From Candidatus Portnoybacteria bacterium (lineage in GTDB: Bacteria; Patescibacteriota; Minisyncoccia; Portnoybacterales; GWB1-42-6): 64,000 nucleotides of DNA. The stretch lies in contig JAQTYI010000003.1 of the NCBI GenBank assembly GCA_028688325.1, positions 32,116 to 96,115 of the forward strand, written 5' to 3'. Below are positions 785 to 40,523 of this stretch, piece by piece. Positions within the stretch are counted from its first letter, which is position 1. Each line of letters begins with the position of its first letter. The notes beneath the pieces were generated by a model. The model did no database searches and was not told where the DNA came from. It worked only from the letters and a program-made list of their open reading frames with translations. A program made the position numbers and the translations under genes.

Positions 785-3439
785 CTAATACACCCTCCTT
801 ATCTCCGCCCCCAGATAATAATATTTCAGGACCTCCTGATAATTTTTCGCGCCCGTTATGGCAAACCGGCGGCTGCCCGCGGCAGAAAGACCGACGCAGT
901 GATTGCCGCCTCCGCAAATGGACTGCGTATAAGGCGCGCCGATGGGATCCCTCACTCCGCCAGCCAGATATTCAAAACCGGCCTGGCAGAACTGCAAGCC
1001 CCAAATTGAGCAGGCGCTTTTTGTGCCGACCGTATTCAATTCCGGCGCGCCGGAAGAATAAGCCGTAATTATGGGCGAGCCGTTATAAAGCGCCATCTCG
1101 CCCCGCGTGGATTTGACCGCGTCAACCACAGTTGGAGCCGCGGTTTCGCGGACATAACCCTTGTAAAGCTGATCGCTTGAAGTATTATTCAGGATATATA
1201 CTTCGTCCGCTCCGCGCTTGCCGCCTTTCAAAATATAATAATAAGCGTAGGTCCTGGCCGCCACAATCATCGTTTTTTGGTGCTCGACCGGGTCGGTTTG
1301 CGAAATTTCCGCGATGCCCTTAAGATAATCCTCGAGATTCAATTCGTTGACCGCCCAAATCTTATTGGCCTTGGCCGAATAAATTATTTCCACGGCCCCG
1401 CGGAATTGATTGTAATTCAACGACGGCTTCCAGGCCGGATGCTCTTCATAAGAAACGATCGTGACGATTCCGTCGACGGCTTGAGGCGCAATTTTCACAA
1501 AAGCGCCGGAAGCAACAGTAGGAATATTATAGACATAGTTCTCGTTGGCATTCTTTGCCGCGATTATCTGCCCGGATTTATCCAAAATATTATAAGCCGT
1601 GCTGGCGGTTAAAGTAACGCCGGGCGTTAACACCTCATAAATTGCTGCCCTCATCTTGGGTTCGGAGCCGGTTATTGGCACAGGCGTCGACGAAGGACTC
1701 GGCGAAGGGCTAACAGAGGGCGTGGCGCTCGGAGAAGGAGAAGCAAACGGACTCGGGCTGGCGGATGGCGCAAGCAACGGAGACGCCAAAGCCGCTCCGC
1801 GATACAGAACATGGAAATCCTGCGCCGCGATCACCCGAACGCTGGCCCATTTATATTTTTTCTTCTTGAAAGTCGCGCCATCTATCAATATCGGCTGGCC
1901 GCCGGATATCAGATAAACATTATTCTCGTCTTTGGGCCGCAAAAGAGTCCCCTCTTTATATTTTACATAATCGCCCGCCGGATAATAAGCCAGTTCCTCC
2001 GCCGGAATTTTTTTAATCTTTGACCAGCCATATTTCAGATTCAAGAATATTTCCGCGCTGATAAATCGCTTGGGCTTGCCGCCCTCAACCAAATAAACGG
2101 CTTCCTGGTCGGCCGCTTGCAAAAGCGTGCCGTCCGGATACGACAAGACCGCGCCGTCCAGATAATTTTTCAGATCCGCCGGAGCCAATTTCACTTTGGA
2201 CCAGCCATAGCCCAGCGCGACAAACAATGCGCCGGAAGGAACCCAGCGTTTTTTTCCGCCCTGAATGAGAAAAACCCGCCGGCCGTCGCTTAAGAGCTGT
2301 TTGTCGGGCCCGTATTTAACCGCGTCCGCCTCTTGGTATATGTTCAGGTCGGATTCTTCAACAACGCGCACTCTGGCAAAGTCAAAACCCAGTTGTGCAA
2401 ATTGTTTTGCCGTAACATTCAAATTTCTCTTTTTCCCGTCTTGTATCAGATAAATAGTCGGCTCGCCTGTAATTTGCAGGAGTGAGCCGTCCGGATATTT
2501 TAAGAATCTTGATTCGGAAAAAAGATCCAGCTGACTCTGTGAAATCGCGATTGATTTTTGGTAAACTCCGCCCGCGTTAGCATACGACGGCAAGTCATCA
2601 TAAATCTGGCGCGTGCCGCTGAAGATTTTATAAATTTTAGGCAAGCCGTCAACTTGGTAAATATAATTTTTATATTCGGCGGCAAAAGCCGCGGCCTCCC
2701 GGCGAAGACGGCTAAAATCAAGAGACCCGGGATCGGGATTGCCTTTTTCCACATCCTTATGCCCCACGATTATCGGCCCATTGTATAAACTGCTGAATTC
2801 GCTGGTAACCAGATTCCAAATGCTGGAAGAGCGCACACCCTGAGTATCAAGATTATTGGTTTGCGCCAGCCAAGCGACCAGCCGCGCCAAACTTTGGTAA
2901 ACGGCTTCGGGCGGCTGGATCTTGGCGTAATTGCCAAGCAGCGAAATTCCAATAGTGCCGAAATTGAAATTATCATTGGTACGGTCGACAAAAACATGCG
3001 CGGCGCGCGTGCCGTTTCCGCCGTATCGGCCCTCATAGATTCGGCCTTGCTGGTCGATGATATAGTTATAGCCGATATCTCCCCAGCCGCGCGTTACGGC
3101 ATGATACCGATATATCGCCTGAATGGTGGCAACCGGATTGGGGGTATTATTGCAAGTCGGATTTGACGCGTCGCAACCGGTATCATGAACGATTATCCGT
3201 TCCACCGGCTGATAATCGCTGGGTGAAGCGTTTTTATCAGGCATCCAGGTCATCAAAGCATTAAGCGCGGGGGTATTATCCCAAGTTGAACGGGGCAAGA
3301 TCACCGGCACATTGGAATCGCCATAGGTCGGATTTTCATTCTGCGCTTTGGTCAAGGGCGCAAAATAGCCGCCATTGGATAAAATAAGCGAGAAAATAAA
3401 CAGCCAAACTATGTTTTTGGTTAAGAATTTTCGTAACAT
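785..3439 (-). CDS. Secreted multi-domain peptidoglycan hydrolase: signal peptide, N-acetylmuramoyl-L-alanine amidase (Amidase_2/PGRP), cell-wall-binding repeats, Pro/Ser linker, SpoIID/LytB domain
   Basis: N-terminal hydrophobic signal. HDTG...GWGDIGYNYIIDQQGRIYEGR...AAHV amidase_2 motifs. Five or more repeats of the type YPDGSLLQ...IYLIQDGKKR. SPSPS linker. C-terminal SpoIID-like block ending CVGLSAAGSRRFAITGAKNYQEVLKYYYLGAEI. Confidence 0.7.
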   Translation of the reverse strand: MLRKFLTKNIVWLFIFSLILSNGGYFAPLTKAQNENPTYGDSNVPVILPRSTWDNTPALNALMTWMPDKNASPSDYQPVERIIVHDTGCDASNPTCNNTPNPVATIQAIYRYHAVTRGWGDIGYNYIIDQQGRIYEGRYGGNGTRAAHVFVDRTNDNFNFGTIGISLLGNYAKIQPPEAVYQSLARLVAWLAQTNNLDTQGVRSSSIWNLVTSEFSSLYNGPIIVGHKDVEKGNPDPGSLDFSRLRREAAAFAAEYKNYIYQVDGLPKIYKIFSGTRQIYDDLPSYANAGGVYQKSIAISQSQLDLFSESRFLKYPDGSLLQITGEPTIYLIQDGKKRNLNVTAKQFAQLGFDFARVRVVEESDLNIYQEADAVKYGPDKQLLSDGRRVFLIQGGKKRWVPSGALFVALGYGWSKVKLAPADLKNYLDGAVLSYPDGTLLQAADQEAVYLVEGGKPKRFISAEIFLNLKYGWSKIKKIPAEELAYYPAGDYVKYKEGTLLRPKDENNVYLISGGQPILIDGATFKKKKYKWASVRVIAAQDFHVLYRGAALASPLLAPSASPSPFASPSPSATPSVSPSPSPSSTPVPITGSEPKMRAAIYEVLTPGVTLTASTAYNILDKSGQIIAAKNANENYVYNIPTVASGAFVKIAPQAVDGIVTIVSYEEHPAWKPSLNYNQFRGAVEIIYSAKANKIWAVNELNLEDYLKGIAEISQTDPVEHQKTMIVAARTYAYYYILKGGKRGADEVYILNNTSSDQLYKGYVRETAAPTVVDAVKSTRGEMALYNGSPIITAYSSGAPELNTVGTKSACSIWGLQFCQAGFEYLAGGVRDPIGAPYTQSICGGGNHCVGLSAAGSRRFAITGAKNYQEVLKYYYLGAEIRRVY

Positions 3440-3515: not shown

Positions 3516-3819
3516 GGCGAGACATTGTCTAACCCAAATTAAAAACAAAAAAACAGCAAAAAACTATTGCTGTTGCGGCGGCTGCGTATTGTCTGTGCCG
3601 GTTGAAGGCGAAGAGCTCGGCGGCATTGTCTTGCCGTTCTCCTCCTTCATCGCCCACCAGATTACTCCTCCTATGATAACCAACGCGATGATGGCAAAAA
3701 ACCACATCATAAGGGTTATTTAGAATTACACTTTGAGTATATCCGACCCTGGCAAAAACGCAAGGCCTCCGTGTTTTGCTGCTGTGGACAACTCCCGGCT
3801 CAAGATATAATTTTAAAAA

Positions 3820-3915
3820 TTATAAAATTTTCCCAGCGCGAAAATTTTACTCGCCAGTTTTGCTCGCTCTCCGCCCAGGACGGAACCGTGCCCGCTCACA
3901 AAACTGAGCGTTTTT
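3820..3915. repeat. Structured repeat family 6, inverted copy
   Basis: Reverse complement matches the cores of 6702-6858 and 36107-36270 (aaacgctcagttttg...gcaaaactggcgagt.aaattttc). Confidence 0.55.
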
Positions 3916-3919
3916 AAAA

Positions 3920-5263
3920 TCAATCCCTCGCCTTCTGTTTTAAAACTACTAATTCGGTAAGCTTATAAACATCCCCCGCGCCCATAATCACGCAAATGTC
4001 GCCCGGCTGAAGATTTTTACGCAAATATTCCGCTGCCTCATCAAAATTAGACGCGTAAATAATATTTTCCGATTTACCCTGATCCTGCAGGCGAAGGGCT
4101 AATTTTTCCGAGCTCACTTTTTGCCTGATATCGTCTTTTTCCCTCCCCGTCGCGCTGTAAATCGGTAAAATAATTGTTTTATCTGCCGCGCCGAACGCGC
4201 CGACAAATTGGTCAAAAAAATCGTAAGTGCGCTGGTATTGGTGCGGCTGAAAAACGCACCAGAGTTTCCCTCCCCACTTTGTAAAAGGGGGGTCGGGGGG
4301 GATTTTTTTCAATAGCTCCCGCGCCCCCTCCAGCGTCGCTTTTATTTCTGTCGGATGATGGCCGTAATCATCATAAATTTTGGCGCCATTTAATTCACCT
4401 TTATACTCCATGCGCCGCCAAGCGCCGGTAAATTCATTTAGCGCTTCAACGGCAATTTTTTCATCAATGCCCAAAACTTTCGCCACGGCCAGCGCCGCGT
4501 TGGCATTGGAAACATTATGCTTGCCGGGAATTTTCAGATTCAGTTTTAGCTTATTTTCCGAGCTATATTTTTCAACGCGTAGTTTAAGATCCGCGCTTAT
4601 GAGCTTGGCAACATTTTCGTCTTCGCCATTTACAACTAAGATTCCGTCTTCCGGCAAATGCAAAATATATTCGCCGAAAGTTTCCATGATCTCGGGCAAG
4701 CCGCCTTTATAGGTATCCAGGTGCTCTTCCTCAATATTCAGCAGCACCAAAATCTTCGGCCAATAATTCAAAAACGACTTATCATATTCGTCCGCTTCTA
4801 TCACCAGATACTTACTTGTTCCCGGTCTGAAGTTGCTATTGCCCCACTCTTTGAGTTTCGTGCCCAAGATCACCGTCGGGTCCAGCCCGGCTTTCTCCAT
4901 CATCAAACCGATCATTGCCGTCGTTGTGCTTTTGCCGTGCATGCCGGAAACGGCAATTGTGTATTTTTCACGCGTCAGATCACCCAATGCCGCGGCATAT
5001 TTTTGCGTTTTCACGCCAAGCCGCCTGGCTTCAACCAATTCCGGATTATCCTCTTGCACCGCCGCACTAAATATCACGCAGTCCGACTGCGTGATATTTA
5101 GTGCTTTATGGCCGATGTAAATTTTTACGCCCAACTTTCTCAATTCCGCTACTGTTTCGTTTTTCACCGCGTCCGATCCGCTCACTTCGTCCCCTTGCGC
5201 CAAAAAATACCGCGCCAAGGCGGAAACGCCGATTCCTCCGATACCGATAAAATGAATTCTCAT
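3920..5263 (-). CDS. murC: UDP-N-acetylmuramate--L-alanine ligase
   Basis: MRIHFIGIGGIGVSALA...GMHGKSTTTAMIGL Mur-ligase motifs. A family C repeat lies in-frame at 4266-4304 (FTKWGGKLW). Confidence 0.9.
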   Translation of the reverse strand: MRIHFIGIGGIGVSALARYFLAQGDEVSGSDAVKNETVAELRKLGVKIYIGHKALNITQSDCVIFSAAVQEDNPELVEARRLGVKTQKYAAALGDLTREKYTIAVSGMHGKSTTTAMIGLMMEKAGLDPTVILGTKLKEWGNSNFRPGTSKYLVIEADEYDKSFLNYWPKILVLLNIEEEHLDTYKGGLPEIMETFGEYILHLPEDGILVVNGEDENVAKLISADLKLRVEKYSSENKLKLNLKIPGKHNVSNANAALAVAKVLGIDEKIAVEALNEFTGAWRRMEYKGELNGAKIYDDYGHHPTEIKATLEGARELLKKIPPDPPFTKWGGKLWCVFQPHQYQRTYDFFDQFVGAFGAADKTIILPIYSATGREKDDIRQKVSSEKLALRLQDQGKSENIIYASNFDEAAEYLRKNLQPGDICVIMGAGDVYKLTELVVLKQKARD

Positions 5264-10791: not shown

Positions 10792-10978
10792 TTATTTCAC
10801 CTCCCTTCTTGCCCTCCGAAGCGTTTGCGCGGGAGGGCCGGATAAACAAAACCCGCATCCCCTTCAAAAAGGGACCCGGGTTAAACACATTTATTATCGA
10901 CCAAAATTTCCATTACTTTTATTATGAGCCCAAACAAAAACCCCGTCCATAGGCGGGGTTGTGGATAAATAAACTATT

Positions 10979-11152
10979 GCACCGGGAGGGAATCGGCCTC
11001 GGCTCTCGACTCGCAGTTTACCCGAACATAATCGAGGGGCGCTCCTCGGCCTGGCCACCGGCTCGCAGCTTCGCCTGCTGGCGAAACATCGCTCCGCCGT
11101 TCGATTCCTTGCGCGAGCCAAGCAGTTGGCTCGCTCCATGCACAAAAAAATA
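10979..11152 (-). other. tRNA-associated mini-element ending in a direct repeat of the tRNA-Lys 3' end
   Basis: 10979-10995 gcaccgggagggaatcg duplicates tRNA 11207-11223. The internal sequence shares long blocks with the element at 33341-33479 (gagcgagccaa.tgcttggctcg, ggaatcgaacg.cggagc, ggtggccaggccgagg). Confidence 0.55.
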
Positions 11153-11205
11153 ACTCTGGCGGGTTACTCTTTTTTGTTTACCCTGGGTTTATTTAAATCG
11201 AAAGG

Positions 11206-11278
11206 TGCACCGGGAGGGAATCGAACCCACGACCGTCTCCTTAAAAGGGAGCTGCTCTACCGACTGAGCTACCGGTGC
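11206..11278 (-). tRNA. tRNA-Lys (anticodon UUU)
   Basis: Manual fold. Acceptor GCACCGG/CCGGTGC, D-arm GCTCAGTCGGTAGAGC, anticodon stem GCTCC/GGAGA with loop CTTTTAA, T-arm GTGGGTTCGATTCCCTC (one U-U mismatch), discriminator A. Confidence 0.7.
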
Positions 11279-11425
11279 GCAACTACGCTCCGATTTTCAT
11301 CGGAGCTTCGATGGGCAAGCATTGAGTCAAGTAAACTGCTTGTCCGTCCGAAGCTCAAATGTAATGCGAGCGGAGGCGGAAGCTACCGGTGCGCACTTAA
11401 TAATTTACCATATTTTACAGAAAAA

Positions 11426-12121
11426 TCAACCCCCTGCTTCTTCTTGGTTTTTTAATTTTTCTCTTATCAGCACTTTTATTGCCGTCAGGCCGTCGCGGTA
11501 TTTTACTTTTTTGCCTTCCTTTTTTACCCGCGGATTGTAGGTTATGGACAGCTCGGTTATTTTAATTCCTTGCTTCAAAATTTTAGCGGTGATTTCCGGC
11601 TCAATTTCAAACCGCTTGCCCGCTAATGACAGATTTTTTAGAATATCCGCCCGAAACATTTTATAGGCCGTTTCCATATCGGTCAATTTTGCGCCGAAAA
11701 GAAAATTGGTCAGGCCCGTTAAAAAACGATTGCCCAAATAATGGACCTTGTTTTTCTCGGGCCGATAGCCGACAAAACGGGAGCCGTAAACGACAGAAAG
11801 ATCGTTTTTCAACAAATGGTCAAAAAGCGAAGAAATCTGATCGATGTCATATTCCAAGTCCGCATCGCAAAAAACTACAAAATTGCCGCGCGCGGCATCA
11901 ATGCCCGTCTTCACGGCCGCACCCTTGCCCAAGTTGCTTTCGTGCTTCAAATTTTTTATTTTTGAATAAAAGCCGCTTATTTTTTCACTGGTGCCGTCGG
12001 TTGAGCCGTCATCAACCACAATAATCTCTTTGTCCATCGCCAACGCCAACAAACGCTCCAGCACTTCTTGGATTGTTTGCACCTCATTGAAAACCGGAAC
12101 AATAATGGAAAGCTTGGGCAT
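11426..12121 (-). CDS. Glycosyltransferase family 2 (polyprenyl-phosphate hexosyltransferase-like)
   Basis: LSIIVPVFNE...VVDDGSTDGT...FCDADLEYD GT2 motifs; start taken at MPKLSIIV. Confidence 0.8.
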   Translation of the reverse strand: MPKLSIIVPVFNEVQTIQEVLERLLALAMDKEIIVVDDGSTDGTSEKISGFYSKIKNLKHESNLGKGAAVKTGIDAARGNFVVFCDADLEYDIDQISSLFDHLLKNDLSVVYGSRFVGYRPEKNKVHYLGNRFLTGLTNFLFGAKLTDMETAYKMFRADILKNLSLAGKRFEIEPEITAKILKQGIKITELSITYNPRVKKEGKKVKYRDGLTAIKVLIREKLKNQEEAGG

Positions 12122-32446: not shown

Positions 32447-33337
32447 TTAATAATTTACCAGCTTCTCCGTTATCGATTCCAGCCAGTCATCGGCATGGAA
32501 ACGCCGGATGATATACCTAAACTTGGGTTGCTGGTCAATGATTTTATACACACTGAAGGCCGCCTGATAGCCGGCTTCTTTGGCAAGCTGAATGACATGG
32601 TCGTTATAGCTTCCGCCGGGATAAGCGAGTAAATCAACTTTTTTGCCGATCCTTTCCTCCAATATTTTTTTACTGCCCGCGAGCTCCGCGCTTAATTGCT
32701 TGTCGTCAACTTTGTTCATAGCCGCGTGATCCAAAGAATGGCTGCCTATGCTCATGCCGTTATCGCTCATTTCCTTAACCTGCTGCCAAGTCATAAAATC
32801 CCTTTTATCTATCCAATCGGTCGTAATAAAGAATGTCGCGGTCATACCGTATTTTTTAAGCAGAGGATAAGCCCATTTGTATTGGCCGTAGCGGCCGTCG
32901 TCAAACGAAATAGCCACGGCTTCTGGCGGCAATGGCTTGCCGGTATCAAAATAATCCAGCAGATCATAAACCGAAACTATCTGATAATTGTTGTCTTTAA
33001 AATATTTCAAATGCGCCTCAAAGCCCTCCGGCGAAACAGTAAAAGCGCGGTCTGTGATAGTTGAGCTGGCAACATCGGGCATTGGCCGGATGTGGTGATA
33101 ATTGAAAACCGGAAATTTTATAACAGCGTTATCAGCCGGCTTTTGATAGCTCGGTTCAGGTGTCATCTCGGCGCTTGAAGGCAGCGGCTCTTGCGTTAGG
33201 GTTCTTTGCGGCAATAAAGTCGGAGTCGATGAATTATTGATTTGCACGGTATTTTCCGCTCGCATCCAATTATAAAAAACCGCTCCGATAGTGGCCAGCA
33301 GCATCAAAATAAGAAAGATGAAAAAAGCTTTTTTCAT
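32447..33337 (-). CDS. Polysaccharide deacetylase (NodB-homology) with N-terminal membrane anchor
   Basis: FDDGRYGQYKWAYPLLKKYGMTATFF...SIGSHSLDHAAM motifs. Start reassigned to MKKAFFIFLIL; the tracked ORF runs into the tRNA-associated element. Confidence 0.8.
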   Translation of the reverse strand: MKKAFFIFLILMLLATIGAVFYNWMRAENTVQINNSSTPTLLPQRTLTQEPLPSSAEMTPEPSYQKPADNAVIKFPVFNYHHIRPMPDVASSTITDRAFTVSPEGFEAHLKYFKDNNYQIVSVYDLLDYFDTGKPLPPEAVAISFDDGRYGQYKWAYPLLKKYGMTATFFITTDWIDKRDFMTWQQVKEMSDNGMSIGSHSLDHAAMNKVDDKQLSAELAGSKKILEERIGKKVDLLAYPGGSYNDHVIQLAKEAGYQAAFSVYKIIDQQPKFRYIIRRFHADDWLESITEKLVNY

Positions 33338-33340
33338 TGG

Positions 33341-33479
33341 TAGCCCTACGGGGAATCGGCCGCGGCTCTCGGCTCGCCATCGCTCGCCTCGGCCTGGCCA
33401 CCGCCTCGCCAAATTTTCCGCTGAAAATTCGGCTCCGGCGTTCGATTCCCGACACGAGCCAAGCAATTGGCTCGCTTGC
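33341..33479 (-). other. tRNA-associated mini-element ending in a direct repeat of the tRNA-Glu 3' end
   Basis: 33341-33358 tagccctacggggaatcg duplicates 33497-33514. Internal blocks are shared with the 10979-11152 element. Confidence 0.55.
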
Positions 33480-33496
33480 TTTTATGGTATTTATAG

Positions 33497-33568
33497 TAGC
33501 CCTACGGGGAATCGAACCCCGATTTTACGGATGAGAACCGTATATCCTAGCCGTTAGATGATAGGGCC
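33497..33568 (-). tRNA. tRNA-Glu (anticodon CUC)
   Basis: Manual fold. Acceptor GGCCCTA/TAGGGCT, anticodon stem TACGG/CCGTA with loop TTCTCAT, T-arm GGGGTTCGATTCCCC, discriminator A. Confidence 0.7.
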
Positions 33569-40111: not shown

Positions 40112-40365
40112 ACCCTTACATTATATTCCACTTTCATAAAACCCGTCAACCACCCTGTTCCACTCGAACCGTTAATCCTCCCTTAATTTTTCGCGAACAA
40201 CAAAAAACGGCTCAATCAAGCCGTTTCTCCTTGCTATACACTATAAGCTATACGCTATAAGCTATTAAATTGTCCCCCATTTATCCCCAAGGGTATTTTG
40301 GGTGGGCACATCTGGATTCCAGCCACGGAACCCTTTCGATGCCTACCCCGTTAAACTTTTGGGTG

Positions 40366-40450
40366 TGGATGATAATGGACCCGAACCACTGACCTTTCCA
40401 ATGTGAACCCTTCGACAAGCTCAGGGTAAATTTCGCGCTCTACTTCAGCT
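40366..40450 (-). other. Degenerate tRNA-Val-like sequence (pseudo-tRNA) just 3' of tRNA-Val
   Basis: Shares GTAGAGCG, the TTCACAT anticodon loop, AGGTC variable region and a TTCGGGT T-loop with the tRNA. The anticodon stem does not pair and there is a 21-nt insert. Confidence 0.35.
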
Positions 40451-40451
40451 G

Positions 40452-40523
40452 TGGGCAATGCTGGGATTGAACCAGCGGCCTTTCCGATGTGAACGGAACG
40501 CTCTACCACTGAGCTAATTGCCC
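40452..40523 (-). tRNA. tRNA-Val (anticodon CAC)
   Basis: Manual fold. Acceptor GGGCAAT/ATTGCCC, D-arm GCTCAGTGGTAGAGC, anticodon stem TTCCG/CGGAA with loop TTCACAT, T-arm GCTGGTTCAATCCCAGC. Confidence 0.75.

Follow-up and report, generated by a model that had tools for sequence, protein, structure and literature searches.

A CPR-wide family of small protein-less cassettes at tRNA 3′ ends, represented by two copies in a Candidatus Portnoybacteria chromosome

Introduction

A direct repeat of a tRNA 3′ end that starts in the T-loop is the classical footprint of integration into a tRNA gene. Two such repeats, one behind tRNA-Lys and one behind tRNA-Glu, mark small elements in a 64-kb stretch of the chromosome of a Candidatus Portnoybacteria bacterium (hereafter the window), a member of the Candidate Phyla Radiation (CPR, or Patescibacteria). 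CPR bacteria have tiny genomes with little spare DNA, yet two of the three tRNA genes in the window carry a conserved fold of about 100 nt. The elements are two copies of a CPR-wide family of small protein-less cassettes at tRNA 3′ ends. The family is apparently undescribed, and no account of such an element was found in the literature. The units look mobile, and the explanation favored here, with a probability of about one half, is a non-autonomous cassette that would recombine in the tRNA T-loop or T-arm and carry a selected RNA.

The closest described systems are tRNA-targeting integrative elements and cis-mobilizable elements (CIMEs). The cassettes share with them the direct repeat starting in the T-loop, the supply of a replacement 3′ end that leaves the tRNA intact, tandem accretion at one tRNA gene, and the occurrence of empty and filled sites in relatives. 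Unlike these elements, the cassette measures about 130–230 bp and holds no protein gene, in line with the view in an initial annotation of this DNA that it is too small to encode an integrase; such an enzyme was found neither in cis nor nearby. The cassette also has an extra, inverted copy of its target, and its interior is a conserved, covarying RNA fold that recurs across CPR lineages at 23 or more tRNA types.

Integron cassettes with their attC sites, and CTX-type attP sites that act as folded single strands, offer a further parallel. Here too, small promoter-less units stand in arrays and would rely on a trans-acting enzyme, sequence of the recombination site forms an imperfect palindrome at the end of each unit, and structure is conserved above stem sequence. 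In contrast to integron cassettes, the palindrome arms are tRNA-derived and locus-specific, the cargo is a conserved RNA fold instead of an open reading frame (ORF), and a link to IntI or Xer would be hypothetical. The R′/R″ consensus of attC (RYYYAAC/GTTRRRY) was not found on visual comparison; the T-loop sequence GTTCGAT differs from it at position 4.

A group I intron has a P3–P8 catalytic core, ends in a G, is at least 200 nt long and interrupts the only copy of its gene. The window cores are 81–103 nt, form a simple three-way junction, end in C and always have an intact tRNA next to them, so a group I intron in a tRNA was rejected. Patescibacterial tRNA genes do carry group I introns, which lie at anticodon-loop positions, match the Rfam group I models and self-splice (PMC13011429). 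Like the cassettes, these introns are CPR-enriched structured RNAs without a protein gene that interrupt a tRNA-like sequence, and at two loci (L116 and L077) the cassette core does sit inside the T-loop of a full tRNA copy. The introns are several-fold larger than the cassette core, however, and the core has no group I features. The intron survey makes no mention of T-loops, duplications or fragments of the kind described here (PMC13011429).

An acceptor/T-arm-like helix on a non-tRNA domain, with CCA in many copies, is also reminiscent of mascRNA/MALAT1, the tRNA-miRNA-encoded RNAs (TMERs) of murine gammaherpesvirus 68 (MHV68) and tmRNA, and processing of the cassette RNA by tRNA enzymes is plausible. 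In contrast to these RNAs, the cassette arms copy the adjacent tRNA exactly and vary by locus. The T-loop is replaced, which removes the tRNA elbow, and the 5′ arm often pairs with CCA; ARAGORN and the Rfam tmRNA and tRNA models miss the element.

Duplicated tRNA 3′ ends in the window

The three tRNA genes of the window, Lys(UUU), Glu(CUC) and Val(CAC) (the last at 40451–40523), all lie on the minus strand according to ARAGORN and Rfam, which place the lower boundary coordinate of tRNA-Lys at 11204 or 11206. The sequence TGCACCGGGAGGGAATCG occurs as an exact direct repeat at 10978–10995 and 11206–11223. Read on the tRNA strand it is C56–A73, comprising the 3′ half of the T-loop, the 3′ strand of the T-stem, the 3′ strand of the acceptor stem and the discriminator. 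Its distal copy is located on the minus strand, 228 nt downstream of the tRNA-Lys gene. The initial annotation had recorded this duplication as 17 nt (10979–10995 and 11207–11223); it is exact as claimed, and its length is 18 nt. The tRNA-Glu gene has a corresponding 19-nt exact repeat (33340–33358 and 33496–33514). Both repeats begin at the identical T-loop position, T55|C56, and run through the discriminator, and both distal copies are preceded by ...GAGAGCCG(A/C)GGC. We calculate a chance expectation of about 1e-8 to 1e-9 for an exact repeat of 18 nt inside some 230 nt. The duplicated tRNA 3′ end is genuine and far beyond chance.

The sequences between the repeats, downstream of the tRNAs on the minus strand, are related at the two loci with a mean column identity of 74%, which bears out the earlier observation that the Lys element is shared with a tRNA-Glu locus. 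Neither CCTCGGCCTGGCCACC nor CGAGCCAAGCANTTGGCTCGC, two blocks of this shared sequence, is found elsewhere in the 64 kb. The element had been described as about 170 nt long with about 160 nt conserved. A conserved module is indeed present, in an interval of 210 nt between the Lys repeats, of which about 140 nt are conserved. A simple att duplication is insufficient to describe the unit, in which the tRNA 3′ end is present in inverted orientation as well.

A family of tRNA-linked cassettes

Further copies were sought with one conserved 21-mer in 185,579 species genomes and with a two-block pattern in metagenomes. The counts from both scans are lower bounds, and most matches are chance occurrences in GC-rich genomes. 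Both patterns demanded exact conserved blocks; copy number and diversity are therefore underestimated and conservation inside the blocks is inflated by ascertainment. At least 45 distinct cores were recovered, at least 27 from the genome scan and at least 18 from metagenomes, and there are at least 38 non-redundant pairs in which a tRNA lies directly upstream on the same strand. The tRNAs concerned represent at least 23 isoacceptors and at least 15 amino acids. The 18 nt C56–N73 are repeated identically in 25 of the 38 pairs and with at most one mismatch in 27. The metagenome-assembled genomes with matches are labeled Uhrbacteria, Magasanikbacteria, Yanofskybacteria, Saccharibacteria and Patescibacteria, along with a few Gammaproteobacteria, which we take to be mis-binned.

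The units share a common anatomy. On the tRNA strand the order is tRNA, trailer, inverted repeat IR1, hairpin P1, inverted repeat IR2, core, and a direct copy running from C56 to the 3′ end. The proximal C56-to-end segment completes the functional tRNA. The trailer is usually a bidirectional terminator made of an A-tract, a hairpin and a T-tract, and a second terminator frequently follows the distal copy. IR1 is the Watson-Crick reverse complement of the acceptor 3′ strand and discriminator, often including CCA, while IR2 is the reverse complement of the T-loop (G53–60) and the 3′ strand of the T-stem, which accounts for an invariant GAAC. P1, typically GCCAA-NNNN-UUGGC, splits this inverted arm at the acceptor/T-stem junction. 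At L015, L023, L073 and L007 the tRNA 3′ end, terminator and IR1 form a single long near-perfect palindrome. Among about 14 elements whose tRNA gene lacks CCA, six have CCA after the distal copy, against a chance expectation of 1/64. In one genome (L048) the unit is found at only two of seven tRNAs. Degenerate or truncated copies are common (L001, L017, L102, L103 and L140), and a search for arms and P1 without a core (empty scaffolds) found none.

The core is a conserved RNA fold

The core of 80–105 nt is predicted to fold into a three-way junction, in the same way in both window copies, with IR2 closing the junction by pairing with the distal copy. One arm of the junction consists of helix Pa (CGSC/GSCG), leading to a variable hairpin Pb with an ANCA loop, and the other of helix Pc (GGCC/GGCC plus GSC/GSC), leading to hairpin Pd. 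Between the Lys and Glu copies, Pa shows a compensatory G/C swap. The consensus from 41 sequences has 32 pairs, is 94.7% paired and shows compensatory changes in 22 of the pairs. Its covariation score is 0.464, compared with 0.137 for shuffled data (none of 500 reach 0.464) and 0.06–0.09 when the partners are slid; P1 also covaries. In all 45 cores the fold on the tRNA strand is the stronger of the two, by a mean of 9 kcal/mol, and an RNA from the opposite strand was rejected. The core is a selected RNA fold supported by covariation. Folding had been suggested as a check on the element, and the outcome speaks against a conserved remnant att site, which had been one of the two proposals for its nature.

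No Rfam family accounts for the fold. In a search of Rfam 15 the three tRNAs alone pass the gathering threshold, and the element is uncovered at E<10 at both loci. A tmRNA or permuted tRNA was rejected, as neither ARAGORN nor Rfam detects one, and a T-box-like sensor of tRNA was set aside because the hairpin loops do not track the anticodon. A guide RNA of the TnpB/Cas12 type, with a scaffold and a 3′ guide, was likewise set aside, since the presumed guide is tied up by its complement, a protein of this type is missing from the neighborhood, and the element would be aimed at a tRNA gene of its own host. Our guess is that the core acts as a protein-binding or self-propagating RNA, rather than as a tRNA mimic of the translation type.

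When the whole transcript of tRNA and element is folded, the minimum free energy (MFE) structure at both loci pairs the 5′ strand of the tRNA with the distal copy, and IR2 with the proximal T-loop. This predicted structure is compatible with an RNA-level strand swap or guide mechanism. Co-transcriptional folding would favor the ordinary tRNA over the alternative fold.

In two genomes, the distal copies of a Lys element (L001, 3107–3136) and a Glu element (L130, about 417–435) are interrupted at an identical site, CGA|TTCC, by a small extra hairpin, CTTGYCCGCC...GGCGGR, and L065 has a different insertion near this point. These cases point to an optional fifth helix or to a site of secondary insertion.

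Filled and empty sites in relatives

Comparison of syntenic loci recovered the empty sites for which the initial annotation had recommended looking. The Lys locus has the gene order DnaJ, a 180-aa protein, GT2, tRNA-Lys, MscS-like and Fmt, and its GT2 protein matches one from a Candidatus Portnoybacteria metagenome-assembled genome at 100% identity. It is filled in the window and in L001, L007, L103 and L051, the L001 element being a deletion variant with the extra hairpin and the L103 element having lost its distal copy. It is empty in L003–L006, where a gene for an HD-domain protein follows the tRNA. The Glu locus (LexA, tRNA-Glu, deacetylase, Lgt, RmuC) is filled, among the relatives compared, only in the window and in L130, whose deacetylase has 82% amino acid identity, and is empty in L131–L134 (71–73% identity). 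In L132 and L133 about 70 nt, comprising a terminator and the promoter TTGTTATAAT, separate tRNA-Glu from the ATG; L131 and L134 retain this segment before the ATG in a different upstream context. Thus the flanks at empty sites differ from those at filled ones, by an inserted HD gene at Lys and by replacement of the terminator and promoter at Glu.

The distal copy keeps pace with its tRNA. The tRNA-Lys acceptor stem reads GGTGCA in the window and GGCGCA in L001 and L007, a compensatory change that the distal copy shares.

Other small genes around tRNA-Lys differ between the relatives as well. A 174-aa gene (PaaX_M, with a weak Cas2-like match) lies between GT2 and tRNA-Lys in L001 (2149–2673) and L003 (3757–4281) and is absent from the window, and L007 contains a 238-aa gene flanked by direct repeats of about 45 nt composed of TTTATTTATCCACA and a terminator motif. 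These differences make the tRNA-Lys/MscS interval a hotspot of small insertions in general.

Arrays, shared cores and a chimera

Units can accumulate behind a single tRNA. Tandem units are present at L012, L061 and L082, and the distal repeat is longer in L135 (51 nt, terminator included) and in L193 (about 85 nt, or 1.4 units). At L227, three units with arms identical in kind and three different cores follow tRNA-Leu(CAA); the region with the units lies on the reverse strand at about 2790–3360 and 3560–4000. L116 and L077 each have a complete second tRNA-Arg in tandem with the intact one, and the core interrupts this duplicate between G53 and C56, as a single copy in L116 and as three tandem copies in L077.

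Identical or nearly identical cores are also found at tRNAs of different identity. The cores beside Arg-CCU and Ala-GGC in L048 are 100% identical and their P1 and arms differ. The shared core includes A57 of the Arg tRNA T-loop, and tRNA-Ala has G57. Cores that accompany tRNA-Gly(CCC) elsewhere, in the genomes of L082 and L172, match the window Glu core at 92–93% identity.

L177 combines parts of two tRNAs. Its tRNA-Asp sequence gives way, within the T-arm common to both tRNAs, to a 3′ end of the tRNA-Ser type, which is followed by a terminator, a Ser-type IR1, P1, the core and an Asp 3′ end; an intact tRNA-Asp adjoins. Judged by its sequence, this is the product expected if a Ser-type unit recombined with tRNA-Asp in the T-loop. 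On the reverse strand of the same locus, a 5′ fragment of tRNA-Asp (positions 1–36) stands about 48 nt upstream of the intact tRNA-Asp, and a segment carrying the intact copy apparently broke the original gene at the anticodon loop.

Origin and mechanism

The favored explanation would work as follows. Units would be inserted, multiplied and lost through crossovers or template switches inside the T-loop or T-arm, the proposed site because this is the only sequence common to all tRNAs and to both ends of the unit. Each event would leave the target's own 3′ end as the distal repeat, and the unit would provide a replacement tRNA 3′ end with its terminator, the proximal copy. The enzyme would act in trans and could be host recombination or some other recombinase. 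Selection would act on the core as an RNA, whose fold would be closed where the inverted arm pairs with the distal copy. In part this upholds the trans-mobilized miniature integrative element of the initial annotation. Filled and empty sites, tandem arrays and the L177 chimera agree with it; the lack of a nearby integrase, the inverted copy and the replaced flank at Glu do not.

Several observations weigh against this explanation. No tyrosine or serine integrase, transposase or reverse transcriptase was found with Pfam among the 50 window ORFs of at least 150 aa, nor was an integrase, transposase or reverse transcriptase present in the 25 recurrent families listed, out of 154 matched, for the neighborhoods of about 45 loci (145 ORFs, all within 3.5 kb); for the ORFs covered, the search for an integrase that the initial annotation proposed came out negative. 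No excised form or precise empty-site junction was observed among the loci compared. The Glu event is not a simple insertion, since the ancestral terminator and promoter of the window Glu locus have been replaced and the distal copy with its CCA leads directly into the ATG. Passive duplication does not explain how the distal copy tracks the tRNA-Lys acceptor change. About 45 core positions, a number inflated by ascertainment, are invariant across distant CPR lineages, and Lys-type and Glu-type units persist vertically over long periods; core conservation and vertical persistence both fit a host-beneficial RNA as well as a selfish one. Finally, strong terminators often precede the unit, which makes expression of the RNA uncertain.

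Several of these points speak for selection on the RNA itself and sustain, as a less probable account, a family of host-functional noncoding RNA genes. Such an RNA would be a degenerate duplicate of the acceptor/T-arm minihelix of the neighboring tRNA, with the T-loop replaced by a three-way junction that binds a protein or ligand. Its tRNA-like ends would recruit RNase P, RNase Z or exonucleases and the CCA enzyme and would stabilize the RNA, and its match to the neighboring tRNA would be kept by selection or short-tract gene conversion. Strong covariation, invariant junction nucleotides and the fold preference for the tRNA strand are all as expected for such genes. The same holds for the long vertical maintenance of Lys-type units and Glu-type P1 hairpins in different genomes, the perfect complementarity of the inverted arm to the 3′ end in old copies (L015, L073, L007, L103 and L069), the excess of distal CCA next to CCA-less tRNA genes, and the co-variation of the distal copy with the tRNA-Lys acceptor stem. 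A host gene accords poorly, however, with the sporadic distribution (as at L048), the frequent decay and truncation, and the recent gains and losses at syntenic sites together with tandem partial units. In addition, the tRNA is separated from the unit by a strong terminator with no promoter, base pairing of the 5′ arm with CCA often leaves no free acceptor end, and no anticodon-like loop tracks tRNA identity.

At the other extreme, the folded nucleic acid itself might do the targeting, making the family a gene-less, CPR-specific system of tRNA-anchored cassettes. In this doubtful but conceivable scheme the inverted arm would be a guide of about 24 nt for the T-loop-to-CCA segment of the chosen tRNA, the three-way junction would be a catalytic or recombinase-recruiting module, and every insertion would recreate the target at the far end, building arrays of different structured-RNA cargoes behind tRNA genes. 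A mobile element acting specifically at the RNA level or as a folded single strand, guided by its inverted arm to the tRNA or its gene, with a core that is catalytic or recognized by a recombinase, is distinctly unlikely. It might reverse-splice into the T-loop like a ribozyme or serve as an attC/CTX-like folded single-stranded substrate, regenerating the target at its distal end so that arrays can form. The inverted arm is the exact reverse complement of G53–A76, including GTTC and often TGG (the complement of CCA), and units stand head to tail, each ending in target sequence. The structure is strand-specific, the MFE fold of tRNA and element pairs the guide with the proximal T-loop and the tRNA 5′ strand with the distal copy, and distal copies can have a CCA that the tRNA gene lacks. 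Against this, no reverse transcriptase was detected among the window ORFs or listed neighbor families, group I and II introns are all much larger than the core, no ribozyme family matches it, and catalysis is a proposal only. An IS200/IS605-type tnpA about 250 nt beyond the L227 array is the sole transposase seen near any copy, at one of about 250 loci, and tblastn with this TnpA matched only L227. Group II introns were not detected in Patescibacteria (PMC13011429), which also counts against an RNA-level element. A decayed attR-side remnant of a larger integrase-bearing island or prophage in the tRNA gene is very improbable and largely refuted. The direct repeat from the T-loop is what such an island would leave, and degenerate tRNA-Val fragments show that tRNA loci in the window accumulate scars, but the same compact architecture and core recur at the whole set of loci and isoacceptors with no integrase listed, the interior covaries as a fold, and there are no viral copies in IMG/VR.

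Two further origins were rejected. In the 2.9 million viral contigs of IMG/VR one core block had no matches and the other six chance matches; with no genuine copies there, a phage origin was discarded. A miniature inverted-repeat transposable element (MITE) or other miniature transposon derived from an insertion sequence does not fit either, as the duplication ranges from 18 to about 85 nt, is always tRNA-anchored and has no fixed length, and the only inverted repeat is the tRNA-derived arm pair.

If the cassettes are mobile, as in the favored explanation, a trans-acting or RNA-based mechanism is needed, and they would be, to our knowledge, the smallest tRNA-targeting elements to be reported. 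If they are host RNAs, they form a new multi-copy class of tRNA-linked noncoding RNA. The cassettes also create false calls of tRNA fragments and long ORFs, rewire the transcription of downstream genes and mark recombination hotspots in otherwise streamlined genomes.

Features of the window copies

The features of both copies are collected in Table 1. At the Lys locus, the hairpin/T-run part of the trailer is kept in L001, L007 and L103, and the IR1 arm, degenerate in the window, is perfect in L007 (GTGCGCCGG), L015, L073 and L103. P1 has nine pairs, most of them with compensatory changes in an alignment of 19 sequences. IR2 is predicted to pair with DR2, the distal direct repeat, or alternatively with DR1, the proximal one. 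Hairpin Pd of the Lys core bears a 20-nt expansion, and DR2-Lys is followed by AT, hence it has no CCA. The terminator beyond it belongs to the host, as relatives without the element (L003) have it too.

Table 1. Coordinates of the tRNA-Lys and tRNA-Glu genes and of the associated cassettes in the window
Feature	Position	Strand	Basis
tRNA-Lys(UUU), intact	11204..11278	-	ARAGORN; Rfam RF00005, 68.6 bits
DR1-Lys, proximal C56–A73 inside the tRNA	11206..11223	-	Repeat search, 100% identity
Lys trailer between tRNA and element: A-run, weak hairpin, T7 run	11144..11205	-	Sequence
IR1 remnant GTGCATGGA, degenerate reverse complement of the acceptor 3′ strand	11135..11143	-	Sequence comparison
P1 hairpin, GCGAGCCAA-CUGC-UUGGCUCGC	11113..11134	-	Fold; 19-sequence alignment
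IR2-Lys CAAGGAAUCGAAC, reverse complement of T-loop G53–U60 and part of the T-stem 3′ strand	11099..11111	-	Fold
Lys core, GGCGGAG...GAGGC, three-way junction	10996..11098	-	Folds, alignment, covariation
DR2-Lys, exact distal C56–A73	10978..10995	-	Repeat search
Intrinsic terminator past DR2-Lys	10939..10960	-	Terminator scan; L003 comparison
tRNA-Glu(CUC), intact, holds DR1-Glu (33496–33514)	33496..33568	-	ARAGORN, Rfam, repeat search
P1 hairpin of the Glu copy, G.U closing pair	33454..33475	-	Fold
IR2 of the Glu copy, CGGGAAUCGAAC	33440..33451	-	Repeat search, fold
Glu core, 81 nt	33359..33439	-	Alignment, fold
DR2-Glu, C56–A73 and CCA	33338..33358	-	Repeat search

At the Glu locus, an inverted repeat around IR2 (33436–33450) is 93% complementary to the tRNA-Glu T-arm, and the tRNA-Glu gene has CTA where DR2-Glu has CCA. 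DR2-Glu abuts the ATG (33337–33335) of a polysaccharide deacetylase gene (Pfam PF01522). The sequence AGGG within DR2-Glu (AGGA in L130), 6 nt upstream of this ATG, is a candidate ribosome-binding site. A mechanical listing of ORFs gives a 339-aa frame (32447–33466) that crosses the element, the deacetylase ORF itself being 32447–33337.

A consensus scan found no promoter between the tRNA and the element at either window locus. The core would be transcribed only by read-through from the tRNA promoter, and this appears obligatory only at Glu because the element there is the 5′ leader of the next gene. With the ancestral terminator and promoter gone, transcription of the deacetylase has to start at the tRNA-Glu promoter and cross the element.

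Housekeeping functions encoded in the window include PriA, Fmt, DnaK/DnaJ/GrpE, Mur ligases, PBP, LexA, DnaB, RecR and CysRS. Downstream of the intact tRNA-Val lie two degenerate tRNA-Val-like fragments (40290–40450, minus strand). One retains the TTCACAT anticodon loop, T-arm and acceptor 3′ strand, and the other a shortened T-arm and ATGTGCCCA. Both are without the conserved core and are therefore duplication scars of a different kind at the third tRNA locus.

The 5′ side of tRNA-Lys is duplicated as well. Positions -3 to 12 are copied exactly over 15 nt (AGCTACCGGTGCGCA, 11381–11395 and 11267–11281), with the distal copy 114 nt upstream of the tRNA (11282–11395) and a hairpin-rich stretch of 99 nt between the copies. 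A promoter-like TTGATT...TATGGT upstream of the distal fragment was noted by eye only and is absent from a consensus scan of 10800–11500. From its sequence, the duplication looks like a second insertion or duplication event at this tRNA.

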